A stretch of DNA of 27,226 nt from a virus (lineage: Duplodnaviria > Caudoviricetes): IMG/VR virus record IMGVR_UViG_3300006789_000124, positions 1 to 27,226 of that record. One strand, written 5' to 3'. The notes under the pieces are model-generated. The model did not search any database and was not told the DNA's origin. It saw only the letters and a list, made by a program, of their open reading frames with translations. Below, piece by piece: positions 1 through 25,117 of this stretch. Both the position numbers and the translations under genes were made by a program. Position 1 is the first letter of the stretch, and each line of letters starts with the position of its first letter.

Positions 1-33
1 CGCCTCAGCGCCCTGGAAGAGGACATCGGGATC
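1..33. repeat. Direct repeat copy A (encodes DPDVLFQGAEA on - strand)
   Basis: cgcctcagcgccctggaagaggacatcgggatc matches 3811-3843 at 30/33 positions. Confidence 0.9.
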
Positions 34-3000
34 TTTTGCTCTTGTACGTTGTAGAGATTGTAGAGCGAGATCACTTTCTGTTTGATACGCCTTCCCGAGA
101 TCATATCTATCGCCGGAGGGAACGTGCCATGTAGCACGGGGTTTAACTCCCAGCTCTCCGGGCGTCACAACGCCGGATCGTCTGAGGTCTGGCAGGATAG
201 TCGGGTAGTCTTTAGAAAGATCTACAAGACCCCGTAGCATCTCGGGATCGAGGTCCCTGGCACGGCTTATATTACCTCGCCCGAAAATATGCACTGGAAT
301 CGGAGTGTCTGGCTGAAGCTCTGCCAAGGTCATCATCCGGCCACGACCCTCGTGGCCCACAACCCGCAACCCGTTGCTGTCTTCTTTCACCATCAAAAAG
401 GGCGGGGCAATGGCTTCTCCCGCCTCGATACGCCTTGTGACCTCTGAGATAGTTCTCTTTCCTGACACGGCTTCTGCTGGCCGCGCTGGATTAAGGGACA
501 GGAACTCTTTAGGGGTCATCCAAGCAACAAAGCCTTTGTAAGCTACGTTCATGTTGAGCGGAACCTGGCCTAAGCCCTCCTTAGAGTCAAAAACGACTCG
601 GCCTGCCGTCATTCGTCCCTCGTAAGAGGCGGCATCTGTTGGAACAACGAACGCCGGAGCAGCCTCTTCTGAAGGCAGCTTGATCCCCAGCCGGGACGCT
701 ATGATACGTTTAGTAGACTCTTGACCTGCTCTGGGCTCGATTCCTTCAACTTCTTCTGCACGTTGAGCAGCTCCTGGGGCGTCACCTCTTCGGGGGGCAA
801 CCTTTCCAGTTTCATCCGCATCCCGTCCAGGTACGCGATCAAGTCCTCGATCCGCTCCTCGTCTGGGATCTGGTACTCTCGCATAGTCTGAAGGTTCCAG
901 ACCCTTTGCAAGATTTGCTGTACTGTCGGATTCATACGCTTTCCTTTGGGCTCTATACAAGTCCCAGTGCTTCTCGAAGACCTTCTCCACAGCTCTTTCT
1001 ACTTCGTAATAGGCGTCGAGGTCTGAAAGAAGCTTCAGAAGCTGCATCTCGCCCGTTGAGAAGCTCTCTCCGTGACCAGACACTGGAAAGTGAACAAGCT
1101 CATGCTGCAAGACAAACATATACTGGCGGGCCGCTGCGCGAGGGTTCTTTGGAGCTATTAGAGAGTTTAGAGGATTTACAAAGAAGCCGTGAAAGGGAGT
1201 ACGGATATGTACCCCCGCGTACTCCTTATCGATAGAAATACCGGTAGGAACATCCGCGATGTCCTTATACCGATCGTACACCCAGTACTCGTCCGATCCC
1301 TTCGCCGCTATCTGCGTCAGTCGCTTCACCTCGTCATTCAAAGAACCTAACGAAGAGTAGAAGTCCGTAATATCTGCTTCTGAGAATCGAAGCGTCTTAG
1401 GTTCTGATAGCTTTAGAAGAGAGGTTGCTAAAGACTCTGCCTTTAGGACATCTCCAAACTCGATCGTTAAAACTTGGTCGGCAAGAGCAGCAATCCCCGG
1501 ACTCGCAACATCAGCCAACTCGCCTCGAAGATAATCTAAAAGAACTCGATATTCTTGAATAGCATAGTCATAGTCGTAGAATCTTTCTTCTGTGAACTTG
1601 TCTGCCGGAGAGGTGTATTTGCCGACAATCCTTTCTTCTTTTCTCCTGGAAAGAAAACTAAGAAGATCGTCTATGTTGTAGCCAAGGATCTGTTCGTGGT
1701 CTTTGTAAGAGCGAGATTCTAAAAGGGAGGGGCGACCTTCGCTGCTCTTAAGCCAATCATCGTGGTCTTTAAGCCTTAGCCCGAGTCCCTCCTCTACTTT
1801 GTGAGAGTGATAGACGCGATCCATCAACCCGTTACGCAGATGTATAAAGGCTACTCGCTCCCCCGGCGACATCCGGGTAAAAGCCTCTCCTACAAGCTCG
1901 TAGACATCAGACATCTGGGCCTGCGTAGCCGTTACTTGGGCGGTCGCTTTGTTAAACCTCGATGCGCCGAAGACATCCGCCCCTTCTGAGCTTTTATCAT
2001 GCCACAACAAAGCAGCCCGAGATTCCCCTCCTCCCCCGCTGGCGGGGTATAGAGTGTTTTCTAAAGAACGGATAAGGTCTCTGGCTTCTTTGTTTGGTAC
2101 GAGATCCAGCCCTTCTAAAGGATCTTCAGACACCTTTAGCGCTGTAATACCGAAGTAGTTTACATTCGTGTTGTTGTGGAAAAGCGCGACTCCCTTTGGA
2201 ACCTCAATCTTTGTCGGAGCAGCAACGTCTCCACCAGCCCCGACTCTAAAACTATCGGAAATCTCGTTGATGTTCTCGGAAGTAAGGGTCTTCCCTTTAC
2301 CAGCCTCAAGTTTCCCCTCCCAGATTTTTAGAAGACGCGCTCGCTCCGAGTCCTTTACCTTCGGCGGAGTGAGCTTTGGTCCTATTAAAGGACCGTCGAT
2401 GTCCTCCAGGCGATCAAGCAAACGCTGCCGAAGAGGCATCGGGCGAAAGGAGGAGAAGGTCTCTCCTATCTCAACGGCTTCTTGAGCCGCGTACCAGCGC
2501 CGAATATGAAACTTAAGCGCGTCCAGGTCTTTCTTGATGTTCTTGTTAAAACCCTCTCTTTGTTTATTGAACGGATACGCTCGGTGAGAAGGGTCTACGG
2601 TCGGCTTCCAATCAATGAAAATGTCATAAGGAATGGTCTTATCAGAGAAGGACTGGATGTCTTGATTAAACTGAAACAATCCCGCCGAAAGGTTTTGATG
2701 CCTGGCAAAATGAGCCTTCTCATGCTTCTTCTTAGAAATCCAGACCTGGGCGGAGCCCCAGGAAAACTCAGCCTCTACAAAGTCCTCGTACTCACCCAAG
2801 CGGTCAAAGCTCCTGCCTAATAGAGGGGTTTTGTTAGGCGGAAGAATGTATGTCCAGTCCTCGTTGCCTCTCGTCTTAGAAGCCCCTCCCTGAAGAAAAT
2901 GTACCTCTACAGAAGCATCGTGGATTAGAGCATTACGTGACAGGGTGTTGGGGACCGGAAGACTTCTTAAATCCTCCTGAGAAGAAACAGTCTTATAAGG

Positions 3001-6000
3001 ATACGAGATCTTCCTTGTCTCGTCTAACTGAGCGTCGTAGTACTCCTCGGGTATACGAATACGAACCTCTGTTCCGTGCTCTAACTTAAGAGCCCCGGCT
3101 TCGTGCTTGTTCCAAAAATCAAGCTCTTCTTTAGGGGTTTGATTAAGAGAGCCTTTCCAACGATTATCTTCCTGGAGTCGCTTCATAGCGTCGTATCGAT
3201 CGGGAATCATCTTAAGAGCATTGCCCTTGGCGTCCTTCTTAACGACAGCTACCTCAGCAGCAAAGCTATCTGCCTTGGTCGTGCTCACGGGAAACTTGGT
3301 TCCAGAGACTATGCTGTCCTGCATCTGCTTAGCACTAACTTCTGCAGTAGTAAGAACACCGTCTCGAATAGTTCTCAAGGAGATCGATTCCGCGCCCAAG
3401 AGAAACCCGAGTTTCGCGATACCAAAGCCGCCCGAGCGCATCTCTATGGGGATGTCTTTCTTGGTTCCCGCCACAGTAAAGAACGCATCCTGAACAATAT
3501 CAGGAGACATGCCGATACCGTTATCAATAAGGGCGATCTCACGAAGAGTCGGGTCATAGCGAACGATAATCCGACCCGCTCCCTTCTCTAGAACACCCTT
3601 AAACTCGGCCTCTTTAATCGCATCAAAAGAGTTCTGAATTAATTCCTTTACTGTAACTTCGGACAAAGACCGCGAGTACATCTGAGAACCCAGAAGCTCC
3701 ACCAACCGGGCCTTGTTGACCTCGATGCCCATCTCGCCACCCGCCTGGGCGACAATCTTCTCGGCAAGCTCCTCATCTGCGCCCGAGTAAAGAACCGTAG
3801 GCGCTTTCGCCGCGTCAGCGCCCTGGAAGAGTACGTCGGGATCAGCAAACGGAGACTTAATCTGAGTAGCCTCAAAGACAATGAAATTATCGGAAATCCC
3901 CTCCCCGTCTTTAATGTTCTTGATATGGATTCCGTCAAAGTTGCCTTCTGCTATCTCTATTCCTCGAAGGATTTCATGATCCAACTCACGAGACCAGTGC
4001 CTCCCCTTAGCATCAAATACGAAAGGTCTTTCTATCCTTAGGTGTGCCGGGATAACCGAGCCCCAGTCCTCGATGAGTTTAGACCACTTGCTGCCCTTTG
4101 CCTGCCCTGTAAGCAGATCATCGAGGAGGTCAGACAACTCTATCTCTTCCGCTTTAGCAGCCCCGACCTCTTTAACAAGCGCCTTGTGCTCTTTCGTAGA
4201 AACCAACCGCGTCTGAACAGCATACGCAGAAGCACGCTCTGGAGAGGGTGTGAAAAAGAGACCTCGAATCGTGGTCTCCCCGTGAGCACTTCCTAAAGCA
4301 GACAAAGAAAAATCCTTAAACACCGCTGATGTTCCGTGGTAAACAACCAGCGGCTTACCCTTCTCGTCAACGACCTTAGAATCACCAAACCAACGCTTAA
4401 ATTCGGGGGTGTCTGTTATTTCCTCCGCTCTCTGTAGCAAGACATCTGGTTCCTCAGCCTTCTCTGGAGCCTTCTCCTTCGGCGGTCTTTTCTTGAGCTT
4501 GAAGGTGGGTTTTCCATCCACTATCTGGATCTTACCCTTCACGATCTTAATATCGTGCTTCAGCCACCAGGCCTTTGGGTCTTGCCCGTAGGTGTTACCG
4601 TGGTTGATGGCATAATCGTCCAGCATCCGAGCAATCTTCTCGGCCTTCTTTGCGCTGTACCCTGCGTCGATCGCTTGATCCATAAACTCGATCGCCTCGA
4701 AGGACATCGGGTTTCTAGGATCCAGCTCAGGTACGTCTCGGAAACCCCTGACCTTGATAGGCTTTACACGCTTACCCAGCTTGCCTTCCACGAAGTAGTG
4801 CATCTGAGCAGCCGCTATGGCACGGGCCTCGTTGTTAATCCAGACAGCCGCCTTAGCTCGCTCAATGACCTCCAGAAGCTCCTCTTTGGAAAGAGCCTTG
4901 TCCATTGTCTTGCTAAGCTCTGCAACCATCTTCTCGATGGCAGGGATAAAGGAGTCCCTCTTCTTCTGCCGGGCCTTGCCCGCTTTCAGGGCCTGCTTTT
5001 CGAGGTCTGAGAGCTTGGGCTTCTTGGGCGCTTTAACCTTGGGCTTAGGTGCCGCTGCCCGACGAGCCCTCTCTTCCTGGATTGCTCGGATATTGAACTT
5101 ATGAAAGTCCTCAAGCTCCTCCCCGCGAGCAATCCGCTTACGATAAAAGCCCAGAGCTTCTGATAGGGCTTCGTCGGACTCCTTAGCTGCCTTCGCAAGA
5201 AGCGTCGGACCTCCCTGAGCCCAGGCGGCCTCATCTACCGTGACCTTAATAGGCTCTTCGACGGGCTCTTTTACTGGCTCAGGAGCCTTGGGAGCTACGG
5301 GCTCGTCGGGAAGCCTCTTGAGCGTAGTGACTTCGTTTTCCAGGAAGCGCATAAGGGACTGCTGAAGAGCAGCCGGGTCATCGGGATGAGCTTTGATCGC
5401 AGCGAGCGCTTTCTCTTTTGCAGCGGCAACCTCTTCTTCTGTCGCTCCCTTCTTCGCTACTCGCTTAGAGAAGCTCTCCGCCAAGTCATCTGCGATTTTA
5501 TCCACGGCATCTGACGCGGGATCGATCTCTCCTCGCTTGATTTTCTGAGCGAAATCTTCCAGGTCCTGAGCATGCCTCGGATGATTGAAAAGCTCATCGT
5601 ACCGGGTTGCAACTGTGCCGGCCTGCTCCCCCATCAGGACACCGGCTTTACGGTTTCCTGTGCTGAGATTCAGCCCTCGGGGGACCTTCGCGGCGAGGTC
5701 CATGTCCACGATATCGGGGTGCTGCTTGGACAGGCGCTTCGCAATCAGCTGCTCCTGGATGTCCAGCATGTCTGCAACATCCCCTTGACCAGGGAACTGC
5801 GACCGGAGGCGGCTTTCTGCCTCAGCAAATTCCTCGGTTCTATTGAGACGAGACTCTGCAATGATCCGAAAGTCTTTAGAGGCTTTCTTGAGGTCGGCCC
5901 TGCGAGGTGTCTCCAAGCCCTTCTTGACAACCCTCCCTAGACTGCCAACCGCGACAGTAATCATGTCGGGAGTAAGGATCCAGCCGGCAGTACCGCCTAA

Positions 6001-7758
6001 ATACCACGCAAGCTGATCAAACGTGTCCATATTAGGGGACGAGCCGATGACATCCAGTCCTACCTGCTGTGTATTATCCCGCTGGGCCATTCCCCTCTTC
6101 CAAGCAGTGGAAAAGTTATCCCAGGAAGTAGACGGATCCCTGGGATCAAAAAGCTCAGACCAACCTGCGCCCAGACTTCCCTCTCTAACAACCCCAGCAA
6201 CGCCGCTGTGCGCGATATCCACTATCTCGAAGCCGCCCATCCACCCGTCAACAGCTCTTAGAAGAACCTCGCCGTCTGTGTCGAAGCCAACGACCTCGAT
6301 TCTCTGCTCTAAGGCGTCTCCGAAGAGCAAATCTCCTTGATATCCCTTGAGCTGTCGATCTGAGATACTACGATTCCCGCTCCAGTTACCGGTCACATAG
6401 AGGGCTCCTACGTCGCGAAGAGCCCTCTCCCGGAAATACTGAATCTTCTCCTCGTGGTTAGGTGCTCCTGCTTCCAGCTTAAACTGTCTCGCGTAGATTT
6501 GCGTCATGGCATCTACGAAGTTGTCCGTAGAAGCATGGCTTAGGAGACCACTGTACTCCTCCCAAACCTGCCTCTTCTGCTGACCGATATCGCTCTTGTC
6601 TAACAAGATAGAGGCGGCGATCATCTGGGCGTCAGTGAACTTCGCGTCTCCAGGGACAACATTCAAGCCCATGGCCAGGCTATCGTCCTTCTCCGTGAAC
6701 TTAAACGAGGGATCGTCCAGCTCCATCATCGTGTTGATGTCACCGGCTCTGATGTACTTGTCCTGCGCCTCGATGCGAGCCACGCCTTCTCGGACAGCGT
6801 TGACACGGTCTACAAGCTCGGGTCCCACCCCTTGGAGAACAGCGCCCCCACGAATGGTCTCTAAATGAAGAACGGCGGCAGGGTTCTGGTTATCTACCCG
6901 GATCTTTTGTTCAAGATGCTCCAGGTTAATGCCCGCAGCCGTGAGGGTATCCTTGAATGTCTGCGCGGACGGGGGCGCTTCTAATCCGAGGCTCTTGACA
7001 TGCTTCTGAATGATCTGGTCTGTCGTATCTGCGGAGGAGCTAGTTCCCAGCTTGAAGACAAAACTCCGTACATCAAGCTCCTCAAGAGCCGCCTGTCGAT
7101 CTGCAGAAGCAGCCATGAGCATTGTCGCGGCCTTGGCTCGCGAGGGCTTCGCGTACTTCTTCGCATAGATCCCTTTAAGCTTCTCATAAGCCTCTTTCTT
7201 GGCATCTTCGAGCGGCAAACCGTCCCACATCCGAACAAAGACAACTGCCGCGTGATCATCCGCGAGTTCTTCCCAGCTACCCGGAAGCTCGTGCTCCCAC
7301 GCCTTTGCCGCTACCTCTTTCTCCTGAAGCTGAATCTTCTCCAAGAGCTGATTTAGCTGCCTCTCTTCTTCCCCCAGCCGAGTCTGGTCTGCGGATAGCT
7401 GCTCCTGGAGAGTGGTAAGGGCGGTCTCTCTTTCGAGCAGCGCCTCCCTCGTCTTAAGAGCCCGATCATATTCTTCGCCCGGAGAGAACCCGTCGGGGTT
7501 CTCTTCAAGCAACGCCTGCAACCCCCGAGCGTCGGCATCGAGCGCTTGTGCCTGCTGATTAAAGGCCTCTATTCGCGGGTTAAAAGCAGTTGCGTCTGTT
7601 TCAAAGACCTGAGCACGAGTGTTGTAGTCCTCGATCAAAGTGTCGAGGTCCATCGGTGGCGCTTCTGGCAGCTCCACAGCCTCCGGTACATCCTCTTCAG
7701 CACGCTCTGCGCGGGGAACTGCGGAGACCGCTGTAGAAGCTTTTGGAGCAGGAGGCAC
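1..7758 (-). CDS. Giant polyvalent / internal virion (ejection) protein, >2586 aa, 3' end outside window; contains ART, GHKL ATPase, HExxH peptidase and ParB-like domains
   Basis: GTG at 7758-7756 preceded by AAGGAG and the upstream gene's TAA. Manual translation (MPPAPKASTAVSAVPRAERAEEDVPE...DPDVLFQGAEA) stays open to base 1. It is absent from the ORF track because there is no stop in the window. It is the last gene of the virion operon, after other large probable ejection proteins. Confidence 0.9.
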   Translation of the reverse strand, partial: MPPAPKASTAVSAVPRAERAEEDVPEAVELPEAPPMDLDTLIEDYNTRAQVFETDATAFNPRIEAFNQQAQALDADARGLQALLEENPDGFSPGEEYDRALKTREALLERETALTTLQEQLSADQTRLGEEERQLNQLLEKIQLQEKEVAAKAWEHELPGSWEELADDHAAVVFVRMWDGLPLEDAKKEAYEKLKGIYAKKYAKPSRAKAATMLMAASADRQAALEELDVRSFVFKLGTSSSADTTDQIIQKHVKSLGLEAPPSAQTFKDTLTAAGINLEHLEQKIRVDNQNPAAVLHLETIRGGAVLQGVGPELVDRVNAVREGVARIEAQDKYIRAGDINTMMELDDPSFKFTEKDDSLAMGLNVVPGDAKFTDAQMIAASILLDKSDIGQQKRQVWEEYSGLLSHASTDNFVDAMTQIYARQFKLEAGAPNHEEKIQYFRERALRDVGALYVTGNWSGNRSISDRQLKGYQGDLLFGDALEQRIEVVGFDTDGEVLLRAVDGWMGGFEIVDIAHSGVAGVVREGSLGAGWSELFDPRDPSTSWDNFSTAWKRGMAQRDNTQQVGLDVIGSSPNMDTFDQLAWYLGGTAGWILTPDMITVAVGSLGRVVKKGLETPRRADLKKASKDFRIIAESRLNRTEEFAEAESRLRSQFPGQGDVADMLDIQEQLIAKRLSKQHPDIVDMDLAAKVPRGLNLSTGNRKAGVLMGEQAGTVATRYDELFNHPRHAQDLEDFAQKIKRGEIDPASDAVDKIADDLAESFSKRVAKKGATEEEVAAAKEKALAAIKAHPDDPAALQQSLMRFLENEVTTLKRLPDEPVAPKAPEPVKEPVEEPIKVTVDEAAWAQGGPTLLAKAAKESDEALSEALGFYRKRIARGEELEDFHKFNIRAIQEERARRAAAPKPKVKAPKKPKLSDLEKQALKAGKARQKKRDSFIPAIEKMVAELSKTMDKALSKEELLEVIERAKAAVWINNEARAIAAAQMHYFVEGKLGKRVKPIKVRGFRDVPELDPRNPMSFEAIEFMDQAIDAGYSAKKAEKIARMLDDYAINHGNTYGQDPKAWWLKHDIKIVKGKIQIVDGKPTFKLKKRPPKEKAPEKAEEPDVLLQRAEEITDTPEFKRWFGDSKVVDEKGKPLVVYHGTSAVFKDFSLSALGSAHGETTIRGLFFTPSPERASAYAVQTRLVSTKEHKALVKEVGAAKAEEIELSDLLDDLLTGQAKGSKWSKLIEDWGSVIPAHLRIERPFVFDAKGRHWSRELDHEILRGIEIAEGNFDGIHIKNIKDGEGISDNFIVFEATQIKSPFADPDVLFQGADAAKAPTVLYSGADEELAEKIVAQAGGEMGIEVNKARLVELLGSQMYSRSLSEVTVKELIQNSFDAIKEAEFKGVLEKGAGRIIVRYDPTLREIALIDNGIGMSPDIVQDAFFTVAGTKKDIPIEMRSGGFGIAKLGFLLGAESISLRTIRDGVLTTAEVSAKQMQDSIVSGTKFPVSTTKADSFAAEVAVVKKDAKGNALKMIPDRYDAMKRLQEDNRWKGSLNQTPKEELDFWNKHEAGALKLEHGTEVRIRIPEEYYDAQLDETRKISYPYKTVSSQEDLRSLPVPNTLSRNALIHDASVEVHFLQGGASKTRGNEDWTYILPPNKTPLLGRSFDRLGEYEDFVEAEFSWGSAQVWISKKKHEKAHFARHQNLSAGLFQFNQDIQSFSDKTIPYDIFIDWKPTVDPSHRAYPFNKQREGFNKNIKKDLDALKFHIRRWYAAQEAVEIGETFSSFRPMPLRQRLLDRLEDIDGPLIGPKLTPPKVKDSERARLLKIWEGKLEAGKGKTLTSENINEISDSFRVGAGGDVAAPTKIEVPKGVALFHNNTNVNYFGITALKVSEDPLEGLDLVPNKEARDLIRSLENTLYPASGGGGESRAALLWHDKSSEGADVFGASRFNKATAQVTATQAQMSDVYELVGEAFTRMSPGERVAFIHLRNGLMDRVYHSHKVEEGLGLRLKDHDDWLKSSEGRPSLLESRSYKDHEQILGYNIDDLLSFLSRRKEERIVGKYTSPADKFTEERFYDYDYAIQEYRVLLDYLRGELADVASPGIAALADQVLTIEFGDVLKAESLATSLLKLSEPKTLRFSEADITDFYSSLGSLNDEVKRLTQIAAKGSDEYWVYDRYKDIADVPTGISIDKEYAGVHIRTPFHGFFVNPLNSLIAPKNPRAAARQYMFVLQHELVHFPVSGHGESFSTGEMQLLKLLSDLDAYYEVERAVEKVFEKHWDLYRAQRKAYESDSTANLAKGLEPSDYARVPDPRRGADRGLDRVPGRDADETGKVAPRRGDAPGAAQRAEEVEGIEPRAGQESTKRIIASRLGIKLPSEEAAPAFVVPTDAASYEGRMTAGRVVFDSKEGLGQVPLNMNVAYKGFVAWMTPKEFLSLNPARPAEAVSGKRTISEVTRRIEAGEAIAPPFLMVKEDSNGLRVVGHEGRGRMMTLAELQPDTPIPVHIFGRGNISRARDLDPEMLRGLVDLSKDYPTILPDLRRSGVVTPGELGVKPRATWHVPSGDRYDLGKAYQTESDLALQSLQRTRAKDPDVLFQGAEA
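250..610 (-). other. ParB/sulfiredoxin-like domain within the giant ORF
   Basis: FVAWMTPKEFLSL...IEAGEAIAPPFLMV...RVVGHEGRGRMMTL...IPVHIF. GHEGRGR (337-357) corresponds to the ParB/Srx GxxR nucleotide-binding motif. Confidence 0.6.
699..935 (-). CDS. Small helical protein overprinted (nested, alternative frame) inside the giant ORF
   Basis: ATG at 935-933 with AAGGAAAG just upstream. The 78-aa product is L/E/Q/K-rich and amphipathic, while the host frame here degenerates into an R/G/D/P linker. Confidence 0.55.
   Translation of the reverse strand: MNPTVQQILQRVWNLQTMREYQIPDEERIEDLIAYLDGMRMKLERLPPEEVTPQELLNVQKKLKESSPEQVKSLLNVS
960..1260 (-). other. Zincin-like metallopeptidase motif (HExxH...H) within the giant ORF
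   Basis: ...GVHIRTPFHGFFVNP...YMFVLQHELVHFPVSGHGESF (1060-1104). HExxH plus a third His and a following Phe is the pattern seen in WLM/SprT-like zincins. Confidence 0.7.
2480..3740 (-). other. GHKL (Hsp90/MORC/MutL-like) ATPase domain plus middle domain within the giant ORF
   Basis: N-box KELIQNSFDA (3619-3648), G1 DNGIGMS (3505-3525), G2 SGGFGIAK (3412-3435), GTEVRI (3058-3075). Downstream PFNKQRE (2554-2574) resembles the Hsp90 middle-domain LNxSRE arginine loop. Confidence 0.88.
3811..3843. repeat. Direct repeat copy B (encodes DPDVLFQGADA on - strand)
   Basis: cgcgtcagcgccctggaagagtacgtcgggatc lies exactly at the ART/GHKL boundary. Confidence 0.9.
3850..4410 (-). other. ADP-ribosyltransferase domain (ART-PolyVal-like) within the giant ORF
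   Basis: TPEFKRWFGDSKVVDEKGKPLVVYHGT...GLFFTPSPERASAYA...VIPAHLRIERPF...FDGIHIKN...NFIVFEATQIKS matches the signature of ART domains in phage/plasmid polyvalent proteins. The His of YHGT is at 4336-4338. Confidence 0.85.
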
Positions 7759-21938: not shown

Positions 21939-23030
21939 TTATGTGTCGAGATTGACGCACACACCCTGTGCGACAAGCTTGGTACAGATGAGGTTGCCCT
22001 GCATCGAGAAAAGAGCCGTCACGACATCCTGGTCACCCACTCGCTCCTTGAACTCGGAAATCTGGGGAGCCTCGTGCATCGGGAACTCCAGATAGTCAGT
22101 GTTCAGGAAGTAAGCAATGCCGTTGTCGGCAAGACCGGAAGTGTGAGTGCCCGAGGAGCCGCTGGAGAACTGCGAAAGCTCCAGGTCGAGAGAACTGTAC
22201 ACCTTTCCAAGTCCCAGCTCCAGGCCCAGAGTATTGCTGCCCTTCTTGTCTTCGGGATCTTGGATGACATCGATGCGAACATTCGACCGTCGAGCATCCT
22301 CGAAACGACCGTAAGTGGCATCATCCATCATGACCAGGTCAGGACCCTTGCCAGGACCACCAGCGTAGTGAGCACACTCGCGATAAGTCTTGCGAAGAAC
22401 CTTCATACCATCGTCAGACCAAGTAGAAGCAGCATTGTACTGGTTGTAGTGGAAGTAAGAAGAACTCTTCGTAACTCCCTGAACGCTCTGTGCTTCTGTG
22501 GTCTGGTTGGCGACGGTGTCCATGTCAATAAGACCGTGGGTCACGCCGCTTCCGATACCGTCCGACTTCTCGCCGTTAAGAGTCATAAGACCCTTCAGCT
22601 CGGCAGTCTGGAAAACGATACCGCGACTCACACCAGTGAGCAGGTACTTGTTCAGATCGGCCTTCACGCCCTCCATCACCATCTGAGGATACTCCTCGAT
22701 GAGACGAATGACAGCAAGCTTGCCGCTGTTGAACAGAAGCTCCTTCTTGGGGATGTTGATCGCAACAACAAGACGATGAGGTTCCACTTGGAACTTCTTC
22801 ACCTGCTGACGGCGAGTCATATTAAGAAGTTCGTCACCGACGTACACACCAACACCGCGAGCAGGAGCGCCACCAGAGAAGGAACGCTCGATATAAGAGC
22901 CCCCTTCCATGGGCATCCGTGCCTTGTCGTTAAGTGCGTCGAACAGCTCGTTACTTCGAACAAAAGAATTTACGAGGGGGCCGCGAAGGTCCGCAAACGT
23001 AGTATTCAATACTTCGGTAGAGATGGACAT
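21939..23030 (-). CDS. Major capsid protein (HK97 fold)
   Basis: 363 aa with strong codon bias. Sequence pattern NSFVRSNELFDAL...EGGSYI, PDLVMMD, YFLNTDYL, GNLIC...QGV is characteristic of a widespread phage MCP family. Confidence 0.85.
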   Translation of the reverse strand: MSISTEVLNTTFADLRGPLVNSFVRSNELFDALNDKARMPMEGGSYIERSFSGGAPARGVGVYVGDELLNMTRRQQVKKFQVEPHRLVVAINIPKKELLFNSGKLAVIRLIEEYPQMVMEGVKADLNKYLLTGVSRGIVFQTAELKGLMTLNGEKSDGIGSGVTHGLIDMDTVANQTTEAQSVQGVTKSSSYFHYNQYNAASTWSDDGMKVLRKTYRECAHYAGGPGKGPDLVMMDDATYGRFEDARRSNVRIDVIQDPEDKKGSNTLGLELGLGKVYSSLDLELSQFSSGSSGTHTSGLADNGIAYFLNTDYLEFPMHEAPQISEFKERVGDQDVVTALFSMQGNLICTKLVAQGVCVNLDT

Positions 23031-23219
23031 ATTCGTATCCTATTAGAGTACGCAGAAAGGCTGGTTGCAGATGTGCCTTCTGCAAAAAAGTAAGCGGTCT
23101 TGAGCCTATCTGCGCTCGTCTTATGCTCGGACTCTTTTGAGCTACCCGAAAACAACGAAGATGCTGAGTTGACCTTTACACAGATAAGACAGTCAATGCA
23201 ACAAATACGGTGGATTTAG

Positions 23220-23396
23220 CTAATATTTTTTGCCCGGATTGTTCTCTGCCCCGAAAGTGGTAGCCATAACAGAGCCTTTCATCAAGCTCCTTTTATACCG
23301 GCGCATGCTCTTAGCGGTCTTATATTTAGGAGCCTTCGGCAGCTTCGGCCCTTTGGGCAGTTTTAGCTTCACGTACTCCTGCTCAAGAGTCTTCAT
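23220..23396 (-). CDS. Small basic Lys/Pro-rich protein, 58 aa (below ORF-track cutoff)
   Basis: MKTLEQEYVKLKLPKGPKLPKAPKYKTAKSMRRYKRSLMKGSVMATTFGAENNPGKKY*, just downstream of a candidate promoter. The RBS is weak. Confidence 0.5.
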   Translation of the reverse strand: MKTLEQEYVKLKLPKGPKLPKAPKYKTAKSMRRYKRSLMKGSVMATTFGAENNPGKKY

Positions 23397-23432
23397 CTGG
23401 GTCTACCGCTCGCTGAAGAGGTGTTGGATGTT

Positions 23433-23460
23433 ATTATATCGCAACTAAGCCATCAAGCAA
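23433..23460 (-). promoter_or_regulatory. Candidate sigma70-type promoter for the leftward virion operon
   Basis: - strand TTGCTT (23460-23455), 16-nt spacer, perfect TATAAT (23438-23433). Confidence 0.5.
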
Positions 23461-23470
23461 GGAAGGCGAA

Positions 23471-25117
23471 ATGACGAAGAAGCGCCCTGCTCTTCTACCT
23501 AAAGGAGCTGAACTCGCTACAGCCCCTGGTCTAAACCAGAGCAAAATCCATGCGCTTTTCTCTACGCCCGAGGCCTTTGTCTCGATGTGCCAGATCGTCC
23601 GAGAGGACGAGTCCACTGGTTACCTGGAACCCACCTCGACCCAGAGGAAGCTGCTCAAAGCAGTGCATGACCATCGCTGGGTTCTCGTAAACAAGTTTCG
23701 TCAGGCGAAGATCACAACCATCTCCGTCATGCTCCTCTTGCGAGACTGCATGTACCTGAGCGGCGTCAAAGGCCTCCTCATCGCAGAGCGCCAGGACACC
23801 GCCGAGGACATCTTTGAAAGAATCCTCTTCGCTTACAACAGACTCCCGCCCGACGTGAAAATGCCGTTCGCGCCCGGAAGGAAGGCGGGCGCAACACAGA
23901 TGCACTTCATCCACGGCGGGGGCATCAAGGTCCTGACCGCAGGAGGACGCTCGCCCGCCATCGGTCGCTCCATCGACCGCCTCATCATCACGGAGTTTGG
24001 TGAAGCAATGTGGCAGCGCAAGGCAGCCATCAACATCTTCCCGACGGTCAATAAACGTCCAAACGCCAGAGTTATCCTAGAGTCTACCCCCGGACGGGCG
24101 GGCTCTCATCACGAGCATATGTGGCAGTCAGCGCTGGAGGGAAAGAGCCGCTTCCATCCCCTGTTCTTAGACTGGTGGCGCGATGAGAGCTGTGTAATAA
24201 AAGCCCCTGACTTCACGGCCACGGAAGTAGAGAAAGAGTACCTGGCCCGACATCCGGGCATGAACTTCGCCAACTTGGCCTTCCGTCGCTCTGCTCTCAA
24301 CACAGAGTTCGTCGGCGACTCTCGCCTCTTTGGGGCGAAGTATCCTTCCGATCCCTATGATGGCTGGCTTGGCTCCCTCGCCCCCATCATGCCCATCGAT
24401 GTTCTCAAGCCAGCGCTGGCAAGAGCGCTTCCAGACCCGCCCCTTTCGAGCATGGGCTGCTGCATCATCGAGGCTCCAGAGCCCCACAAGAAGTACCTCG
24501 TCACAGCTGACCCCGCAGGGTACGGTGCCGGAGGAGATAAGAGCGCCCTTACCGTGTGGGATGCTGTCGATCGCAAAGAGGTAGCGTTCTGGGAAGACCG
24601 GGAAGACCCCGGACGTTTTGCCCAGCGCCTTAAAAATATACAAGCCCGCTACAACAACGCGCTCCTCGCTGTCGAGTCCAACGCCACGGCCTGTATCGCT
24701 GTGCTTAAAGACCAGGGAAACAAGAACCTGCTCTGGACAAGCCGTACTCATCCCGGTTGGTACGCTACGAACAAGCGCCTACAAGAAGCGGAAGCTCGCT
24801 TGGTTCAGCTTCTTCGCCAAGAAGATATCTTGATCCGCTCACGAGGGCTCTTGCACCAACTCGTAAACTACGACGGGAGCAGAAAGAAGCGCGTCAAAGG
24901 CCTCGACGGCATCGTCCATCACTTCGATAGAGCCAGAACAGCTGTAATGGCGGCGGATATTCTTTCCCGCAGACATTTCACAAAAGCTAATATCGAAGAG
25001 AACGAATACGAGCGTGTTCCAGGGCAGCTGAGTATATCAGATCTCGATAGACACAATAATAGAATCAAGCGAGAATCGCGAAACCTCTTCAAACCCCCAC
25101 CTCGGGACTGGTTGTAA
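23471..25117 (+). CDS. terL: Terminase large subunit
   Basis: Walker A-like VNKFRQAKITT, Walker B-like LIITEFG, coupling motif ILESTP, RNase H-fold nuclease motifs TADPAG...DKSA and AVESN. AAGGAAGG RBS. Confidence 0.92.
   Translation: MTKKRPALLPKGAELATAPGLNQSKIHALFSTPEAFVSMCQIVREDESTGYLEPTSTQRKLLKAVHDHRWVLVNKFRQAKITTISVMLLLRDCMYLSGVKGLLIAERQDTAEDIFERILFAYNRLPPDVKMPFAPGRKAGATQMHFIHGGGIKVLTAGGRSPAIGRSIDRLIITEFGEAMWQRKAAINIFPTVNKRPNARVILESTPGRAGSHHEHMWQSALEGKSRFHPLFLDWWRDESCVIKAPDFTATEVEKEYLARHPGMNFANLAFRRSALNTEFVGDSRLFGAKYPSDPYDGWLGSLAPIMPIDVLKPALARALPDPPLSSMGCCIIEAPEPHKKYLVTADPAGYGAGGDKSALTVWDAVDRKEVAFWEDREDPGRFAQRLKNIQARYNNALLAVESNATACIAVLKDQGNKNLLWTSRTHPGWYATNKRLQEAEARLVQLLRQEDILIRSRGLLHQLVNYDGSRKKRVKGLDGIVHHFDRARTAVMAADILSRRHFTKANIEENEYERVPGQLSISDLDRHNNRIKRESRNLFKPPPRDWL

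Follow-up and report, generated by a model that had tools for sequence, protein, structure and literature searches.

The window, i.e., the whole 27,226-nucleotide stretch analysed here, is a phage contig, with matches to major head, virion structural, tail, terminase, and portal proteins among its genes. The runs in which this DNA occurs are marine metagenomes, with no RNA run among the 24 listed. The major head and virion genes on the minus strand diverge from the terminase and portal genes on the plus strand at a short intergenic region (positions 23030-23471). The last gene seen of the block that contains the major head, virion, and tail genes encodes a giant polyvalent protein, and a second reading frame is nested in it. 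The features in and around this gene are as follows.

1-7758, minus strand: giant polyvalent protein gene, at least 2586 residues, running off the window at base 1
886-3714, minus strand: whole module, with a GHKL ATPase, a middle region, a low-confidence insertion, and then a peptidase
886-1380, minus strand: Wss1/WLM/YgjP-like zinc metallopeptidase domain, with HExxH at 1104-1090 and a further His at 1074-1072
942-947, minus strand: Shine-Dalgarno (SD)-like AAAGGA, 6 nt 5' of the nested ATG, with AAGGA at 946-942; pairing energy, -5.6 kcal/mol
699-935, minus strand (935 to 699): nested gene P0001, 78 codons, ATG start, TAG stop, +1 frame of the giant ORF (7758 to 1)
892-936, minus strand: doubly coded stretch, in which the conserved C-terminal module motif of the giant frame (YESDSTANLAKGLE) lies atop the first helix of the nested protein
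700-891, minus strand: shadow linker of the giant frame, rich in R/G/D/E/P/A/S
100-660, minus strand: downstream domain with a GHEGRGR motif, tentatively called ParB-like from this motif only

Several conflict domains are combined in the one chain of the giant protein, i.e., an ART-PolyVal domain at 4368-4216 (E = 1.6e-13, Pfam search), a HATPase_c_3 domain at 3663-3316 (E = 3.7e-7, Pfam search), and the HExxH peptidase, and the giant gene sits among virion genes. In its size, its place among virion genes, its ART-PolyVal domain, its zincin-like HExxH motif, and its domain shuffling, the giant protein resembles the polyvalent proteins as they are presented in the main text of Iyer et al. (2017, PMC5512222). 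Judging from the gene context and the polyvalent-protein literature, it would be packaged and injected. The short motif EPDVLLQ occurs once and DPDVLFQG twice at domain boundaries of the giant protein (window positions 4452, 3843, and 33 on the minus strand, i.e., residues 1103, 1306, and 2576, respectively), and this recurring motif is possibly a cleavage or cassette-junction signal.

The nested ORF overlaps giant residues 2275-2353 and lies wholly within the giant gene, in another frame and with its own start and ribosome-binding site. The HELVH sequence of the peptidase begins at giant residue 2219 (nt 1104), 56 codons 5' of the nested start, and the AAAGGA hexamer is coded within the last helix of the peptidase domain. 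A preceding sequence-only reading had described a same-strand, alternative-frame ORF with an ATG, an SD-like AAGGA, and a natural helical composition. The ORF is confirmed at 935-699 with the AAGGA in place, and AlphaFold predicts four helices for its product (residues 3-17, 25-43, 53-65, and 68-75; pLDDT 89), a high score being weak evidence for a short sequence, as is pointed out in part of PMC13294457. The product contains no cysteine and no hydrophobic signal.

The same reading had placed a linker of the giant frame over exactly the nested interval. This part of the claim stands in that no other 79-residue stretch of the 2586 giant residues is less hydrophobic than the overlap (among 2507 sliding windows, only 19 are equally low, and all of these start here), and the R/G/D/E/P/A/S-rich composition recurs in 128 homologous giant proteins; it does not stand as to the exact extent, since in relatives the first 15 nested codons are conserved in both frames, with identities of 0.87 for the giant and 0.81 for the nested frame.

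The length and the SD motif are locally unremarkable. ATG-started +1 ORFs of 60-92 codons are found at many places in the genes of the window, 14% of 1000 trials leave the nested frame open when the giant protein is kept and its codons are resampled, and the nested SD motif is equalled by 14% of the background +1 ATGs. On the window evidence alone, the nested ORF is not beyond chance, and the case for it comes from the relatives, which keep the frame. The other three long +1 ORFs of the giant gene are R/S-rich and unlike the nested ORF. Four DNA runs compared over positions 400-1400 of the window show no differences inside the overlap.

The +1 frame in relatives of the module

A DNA pattern for the ATPase motif yielded 74 viral and 7 genome loci, i.e., 82 together with the window; the motif is in frame in 80 of the 82 and the peptidase is present in 75, and the set was reduced to 58 representatives at 95% identity. 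The +1 frame is free of stops in all 58 over codons 65-105 after HExxH, a span that was picked for these sequences after the data had been seen and was fixed beforehand for the second scan. In a same-size comparison, 19 other windows are open in 1-17 of 55-58 sequences, and the +2 frame is open in 1 of 58. At offsets 60-99, no +1 stop is found in 2320 codons, as against about 5% elsewhere. A second DNA pattern gave 46 further loci, 45 of which have the peptidase; after removal of 9 identical copies, the +1 frame is open over the same span in all 36 distinct modules. Single-linkage clustering of the 94 sequences by peptidase identity gives 74 clusters at 90%, 40 at 70%, and 17 at 50%. Two clades account for 69 of the 94, and the window forms its own cluster. 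The nested gene is not lost in any of the 94 module copies across the 17 clusters at 50% identity.

A profile of the nested family, run against all six frames of 170 loci, gives 152 matches, all in the +1 frame directly behind the peptidase and none elsewhere, and 148 of 152 peptidase loci carry such a match; the scan is partly circular, as 57 of the sequences built the profile, and duplicates as well as the window's own contig are among the 170 loci. In the four loci without a profile match, a +1 ORF is still present; it is 37 residues long from an ATG in L099 and L108 and is longer and further downstream in L121 and L122. The module of the latter two (at about 4700-4930) is very divergent and has an extra segment after the peptidase, and the nested +1 ORF is shifted accordingly. 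In L001 (4404-4637), a short internal duplication in the overlap is visible in both frames. In L034, L097, L128, L140, and L070, only about 30-65 codons of the giant frame remain past the nested gene, and a module can thus also lie close to the C terminus. Two other loci, L020 and L021, were rejected as false matches with DNA-polymerase-like sequence, as judged by eye.

In 60 of the 94 copies, the nested frame starts with an ATG or GTG 56 or 60 codons after HExxH (median length, 73 codons), and a +1 stop lies within the 10 codons upstream of the start in 78 of 94. In 73 of 85 copies, the SD pairs more strongly than it does in shuffles that preserve the protein, 9 of the 94 being left out for uncertain starts, and the SD count among the representatives is 45 of 58, vs 18% in the background; both counts are favoured by the fact that starts were picked partly by SD strength. 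The fixed offset, the upstream +1 stop, and the SD motif point to independent initiation, and the nested gene is likely translated from its own start. Stops in the nested frame of homologs or a lost start or ribosome-binding site had been named in the sequence-only reading as grounds for giving the gene up; the frame proved to be open in 58 of 58 and 36 of 36 copies, and starts and SD motifs are kept.

The sigma-70 score before the nested gene is 7.60 in 85 loci and the expected value is also 7.60, by which an internal promoter of the sigma-70 type was ruled out as a family trait, and no minus-strand sigma-70 site was found at positions 400-1600 of the window. Because there is no excess sigma-70 signal before it, the nested gene is likely read from the transcript of the giant gene.

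The comparison of substitutions in the two frames that had been proposed as a check came out in favour of the gene. In 19 disjoint close pairs, the substitution rates at codon positions 1, 2, and 3 are 0.14, 0.09, and 0.43 in the peptidase; in the overlap they are 0.27, 0.18, and 0.17 when read in the giant frame and 0.18, 0.15, and 0.28 when read in the nested frame, i.e., it is the wobble position of the nested frame that takes the substitutions there. The amino acid identity over the overlap is 0.74 for the nested and 0.65 for the giant product in these pairs. In 31 pairs aligned on the nested start, the rate at the third position of the giant frame is 0.43 at codons -30 to -16, 0.28 at codons -15 to -1 (the SD region), and 0.13 at codons 0 to 14; at codons 15 to 29, the giant identity is down to 0.58 and the nested identity is still 0.69, and the giant frame decays into the linker. 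None of the close pairs includes the window, and these values describe its relatives, its own lineage being represented only by P0002. Judged from these alignments, the substitution pattern is that of a real overlapping gene, with a frame that is kept open and is under purifying selection in the relatives. At the family level, the nested gene is virtually certain to be real, and there is very little doubt that it is real in the window as well. The overlap is a clean natural case for the origin and persistence of overlapping genes, passing from single through dual to nested-dominant coding within about 45 codons.

The ATPase-peptidase module upstream of the nested gene

The GHKL ATPase carries the Bergerat-fold motifs ExxxNxxD, DxGxG, and GxxG, and the best structure matches for the N-terminal part and the middle region of the module are Hsp90 and MORC (E about 1e-10; mean pLDDT of the model, 70). 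All 57 aligned copies retain the ATPase motifs and HExxH unchanged, and 51 of them also have the further His. The family matches of the peptidase are all weak, with WLM in 27 and YgjP-like in 35 of 57 copies (E up to 0.05), proabylysin at E = 0.003, Wss1 at E = 0.015-0.024, and SprT as well; the window itself scores under the curated cut-off for WLM. The module may be an ATP-driven, Wss1-like protease acting on host or self substrates. It has 943 residues in the window vs about 600-700 in relatives, and the extra part (about 2060-1390, module residues 553-774) is largely helical and has low model confidence.

The peptidase profile leads to 252 clusters at 50% identity, and the ATPase part is also present in 127 of the best 150 matches to this profile. 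The chain continues for at least 140 residues through a G/S/R-rich linker in 128 of 148 HExxH homologs, in which the module is thus internal. Eight stand-alone GHKL-peptidase proteins of 563-754 residues (P0067, P0091, P0102, P0113, P0119, P0126, P0139, and P0151) end 68-73 residues after HExxH, just beyond the point at which the nested gene starts; this set consists of proteins only, and for some of them the contig may simply stop there. By its name, P0113 comes from a Chlamydiales genome. Hydrophobic stretches are visible by eye near the N termini of P0119 and P0126, which hints at a role as secreted effectors. When two of the stand-alone proteins were used in a viral scan, only giant-protein copies or partial matches were returned. 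The full module had no match in the phage or plasmid searches, the peptidase piece had none among longer proteins (word search) or in cultured phages, and PADLOC gave none for the three phage modules tested.

The domains on either side of the module vary among the relatives. Clustering of the 220 residues that follow the nested stop gives 17 types in 53 loci, and that of the region upstream of the ATPase gives 21 in 54 loci. The sequence-only reading had left the partner of the nested product open between the GHKL-peptidase and the ParB-like domain, and had proposed that the nested gene travels with its cassette. The second proposal is borne out by strict linkage to the module while the flanking domains are swapped, and of the two candidate partners only the GHKL-peptidase is retained. 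The downstream domain was ruled out, as there are 17 downstream types among the 53 loci and it is the first domain of a separate gene, not preceded by a nested ORF, in the 4 relatives read of 7; it has no match to ParB at E up to 1, or to another Pfam family, in the window and three relatives. In other phages (L003-L009), the GHEGRGR-motif domain likewise opens a gene of its own. Because the flanking domains vary, the nested gene is assigned to the ATPase-peptidase module, and its product is most probably a dedicated partner of this module.

Possible roles of the nested product

We see an even chance that the nested product is a co-transcribed inhibitor or immunity partner of the putatively toxic module. 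This role is favoured because the product is small, helical, and fast-diverging, has no invariant residue, and is encoded directly behind an intact enzyme with strict co-occurrence, which is the layout of MuF toxin-immunity pairs; the same traits fit a chaperone or adaptor as well. The nested family has no invariant residue in its alignment, and its identity is 0.15-0.31 where that of the peptidase is 0.1-0.5, i.e., it diverges faster than the enzyme. No significant match to an antitoxin or immunity family was found, the best Pfam hits being scattered and weak and PADLOC and the fold search giving none. According to the part of PMC5512222 that deals with them, the metallopeptidases of polyvalent proteins are proposed mainly to process the polyprotein itself; a self-processing peptidase needs no antidote, which counts against an inhibitor.

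If the product is an inhibitor, the nested frame would have its own translation start on the giant transcript and yield a four-helix protein, which would bind and restrain the module while virions, and with them the giant protein, are being produced. The small protein would stay in the producing cell, and the injected module would arrive free of it. As to the origin of the arrangement, a two-gene unit, consisting of the enzyme and then its small partner, may have been incorporated into the interior of a polyprotein. The giant frame then has to read through the partner gene, which thus becomes an inter-domain linker. Such an origin by read-through is suggested by the fact that the stand-alone GHKL-peptidase proteins end so close behind HExxH.

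Alternatively, the nested product may be a positive partner, i.e., a chaperone, co-chaperone, activator, or substrate adaptor for the folding, packaging, or targeting of the module, and we regard this as less likely than an inhibitor, although it fits nearly as well. One-to-one linkage and selection are expected equally for such a partner, and the fold of the module is Hsp90/MORC-like. Hsp90 works with small co-chaperones. On the other hand, a fast-diverging protein with no invariant residue directly behind an enzyme follows the toxin-immunity layout, and the eight stand-alone proteins, one of them from Chlamydiales, suggest use of the enzyme as a stand-alone effector, as far as can be judged from proteins only.

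It is improbable that the nested gene works apart from the module, e.g., in host takeover or anti-defence, and rides along by physical linkage. The overlap by itself ensures co-inheritance, and the first 15 codons are doubly constrained; for an independent passenger, however, loss or swapping would be expected, as is seen for the flanking domains, whereas there is no loss in the 94 copies across 17 clusters and no profile match away from the module in the 170 loci.

The window ORF could be a chance or decayed shadow frame even with a real gene in the relatives, which we consider very unlikely. Its likeness to the family is indeed weak, in addition to its unremarkable local length and SD motif and the limited weight of an AlphaFold score on a short sequence. 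Against a family profile built without it, P0001 ranks first of 351 segments, yet with 4.2 bits and E = 1, and hhalign gives a probability of 6% to the closest subgroup and 0.1-0.3% to the others, the family subgroups being themselves mutually distant (15-92%). The orthology of the window copy therefore rests on position. Searches with P0001 alone retrieved no viral locus, no Pfam or PHROG family, and no usable Atlas match, and Foldseek found no match to the small protein in PDB or BFVD at E up to 0.001; there is one Atlas lead, for P0157 (0.76). A chance frame is nevertheless hard to reconcile with several observations. P0001 shares the family offset of 56 codons, the typical length, and the helix pattern. 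P0002, which is 76% identical to it over the full length, keeps the start, the length, and the hydrophobic positions despite 18 changes in 78. Moreover, the giant frame is least hydrophobic exactly at the overlap, and its other three long +1 ORFs do not resemble the nested one.

Programmed frameshifting into the +1 frame, which would give a shorter giant protein with an alternative C terminus and would suit a same-strand +1 frame at a fixed position at the module end, is extremely unlikely in view of the ATG or GTG at a fixed offset (60 of 94), the upstream +1 stop (78 of 94), and the SD motifs.

Relation to known systems

In the MuF toxins, as described in part of PMC5576092, a phage enzyme domain is followed by a small immunity ORF without a known domain. 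The likeness to the nested gene lies in the small ORF directly behind the enzyme; here, by contrast, the enzyme is internal (in 128 of the 148 homologs) and the ORF is nested rather than downstream, and no MuF domain is matched in the 2586 residues of the giant protein seen. In the Rz/Rz1 genes, one phage gene is contained entirely in the +1 frame of a second, is missed by gene callers, and encodes a product that forms a complex with that of its host gene, as is set out in part of PMC6139136, in which stop-codon read-through is also discussed as one route to gene embedding. The lambda Rz/Rz1 pair is like the present case in being an embedded +1 phage gene; it differs in that the nested gene here has no membrane or lipoprotein signal, and its host encodes a multi-enzyme protein of more than 2500 residues, with the overlap at an inter-domain linker and not in a lysis gene. 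The only trace of a lysis context in the window is the weak rIIA match of the ATPase.

An Hsp90/MORC-like ATPase is common to the module and to prokaryotic MORC/paraMORC, T4 rIIA, and Tiamat. The similarity of rIIA and paraMORC3 to the module covers the ATPase only, at 24-32% of the query (proteins treated in part of PMC7824862). Tiamat, in the part of the preprint covered (10.64898/2026.09.30.754977), has a Wss1-like fold behind a GHKL ATPase, without HExxH, whereas HExxH is invariant in the module described here. A word search of the main text of PMC5512222 gives no match for GHKL, HSP90, or overlap, and finds "nested" for a hairpin only; neither the GHKL-peptidase module nor a nested partner was met in the passages covered. 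In a full-text literature search, with most subscription journals and the supplements outside its scope, no title or abstract start describes the module or the nested gene. Nested genes are known, and so are toxin-immunity pairs; their combination inside a polyprotein was not found in print.

It is a tentative generalization, somewhat short of an even chance in our estimate, that polyvalent proteins carry toxic modules internally, with each cognate inhibitor nested in the linker behind its module. If this is true, the low-complexity linkers of giant phage proteins would be an unannotated layer of immunity genes, and the GHKL-Wss1 module and its four-helix partner would make up a new kind of ATP-dependent protease system, delivered by phages and provided with its own antidote. 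Such an arrangement would give a testable answer to how a phage makes much effector-laden virion protein without early harm to its host. The small-protein family is mostly invisible to standard annotation and is tied to an ATPase-protease module of 252 clusters, mostly in giant proteins. Members of the family are sometimes called by gene callers as hypothetical proteins (P0153-P0172), including on contigs of 17-19 kb.
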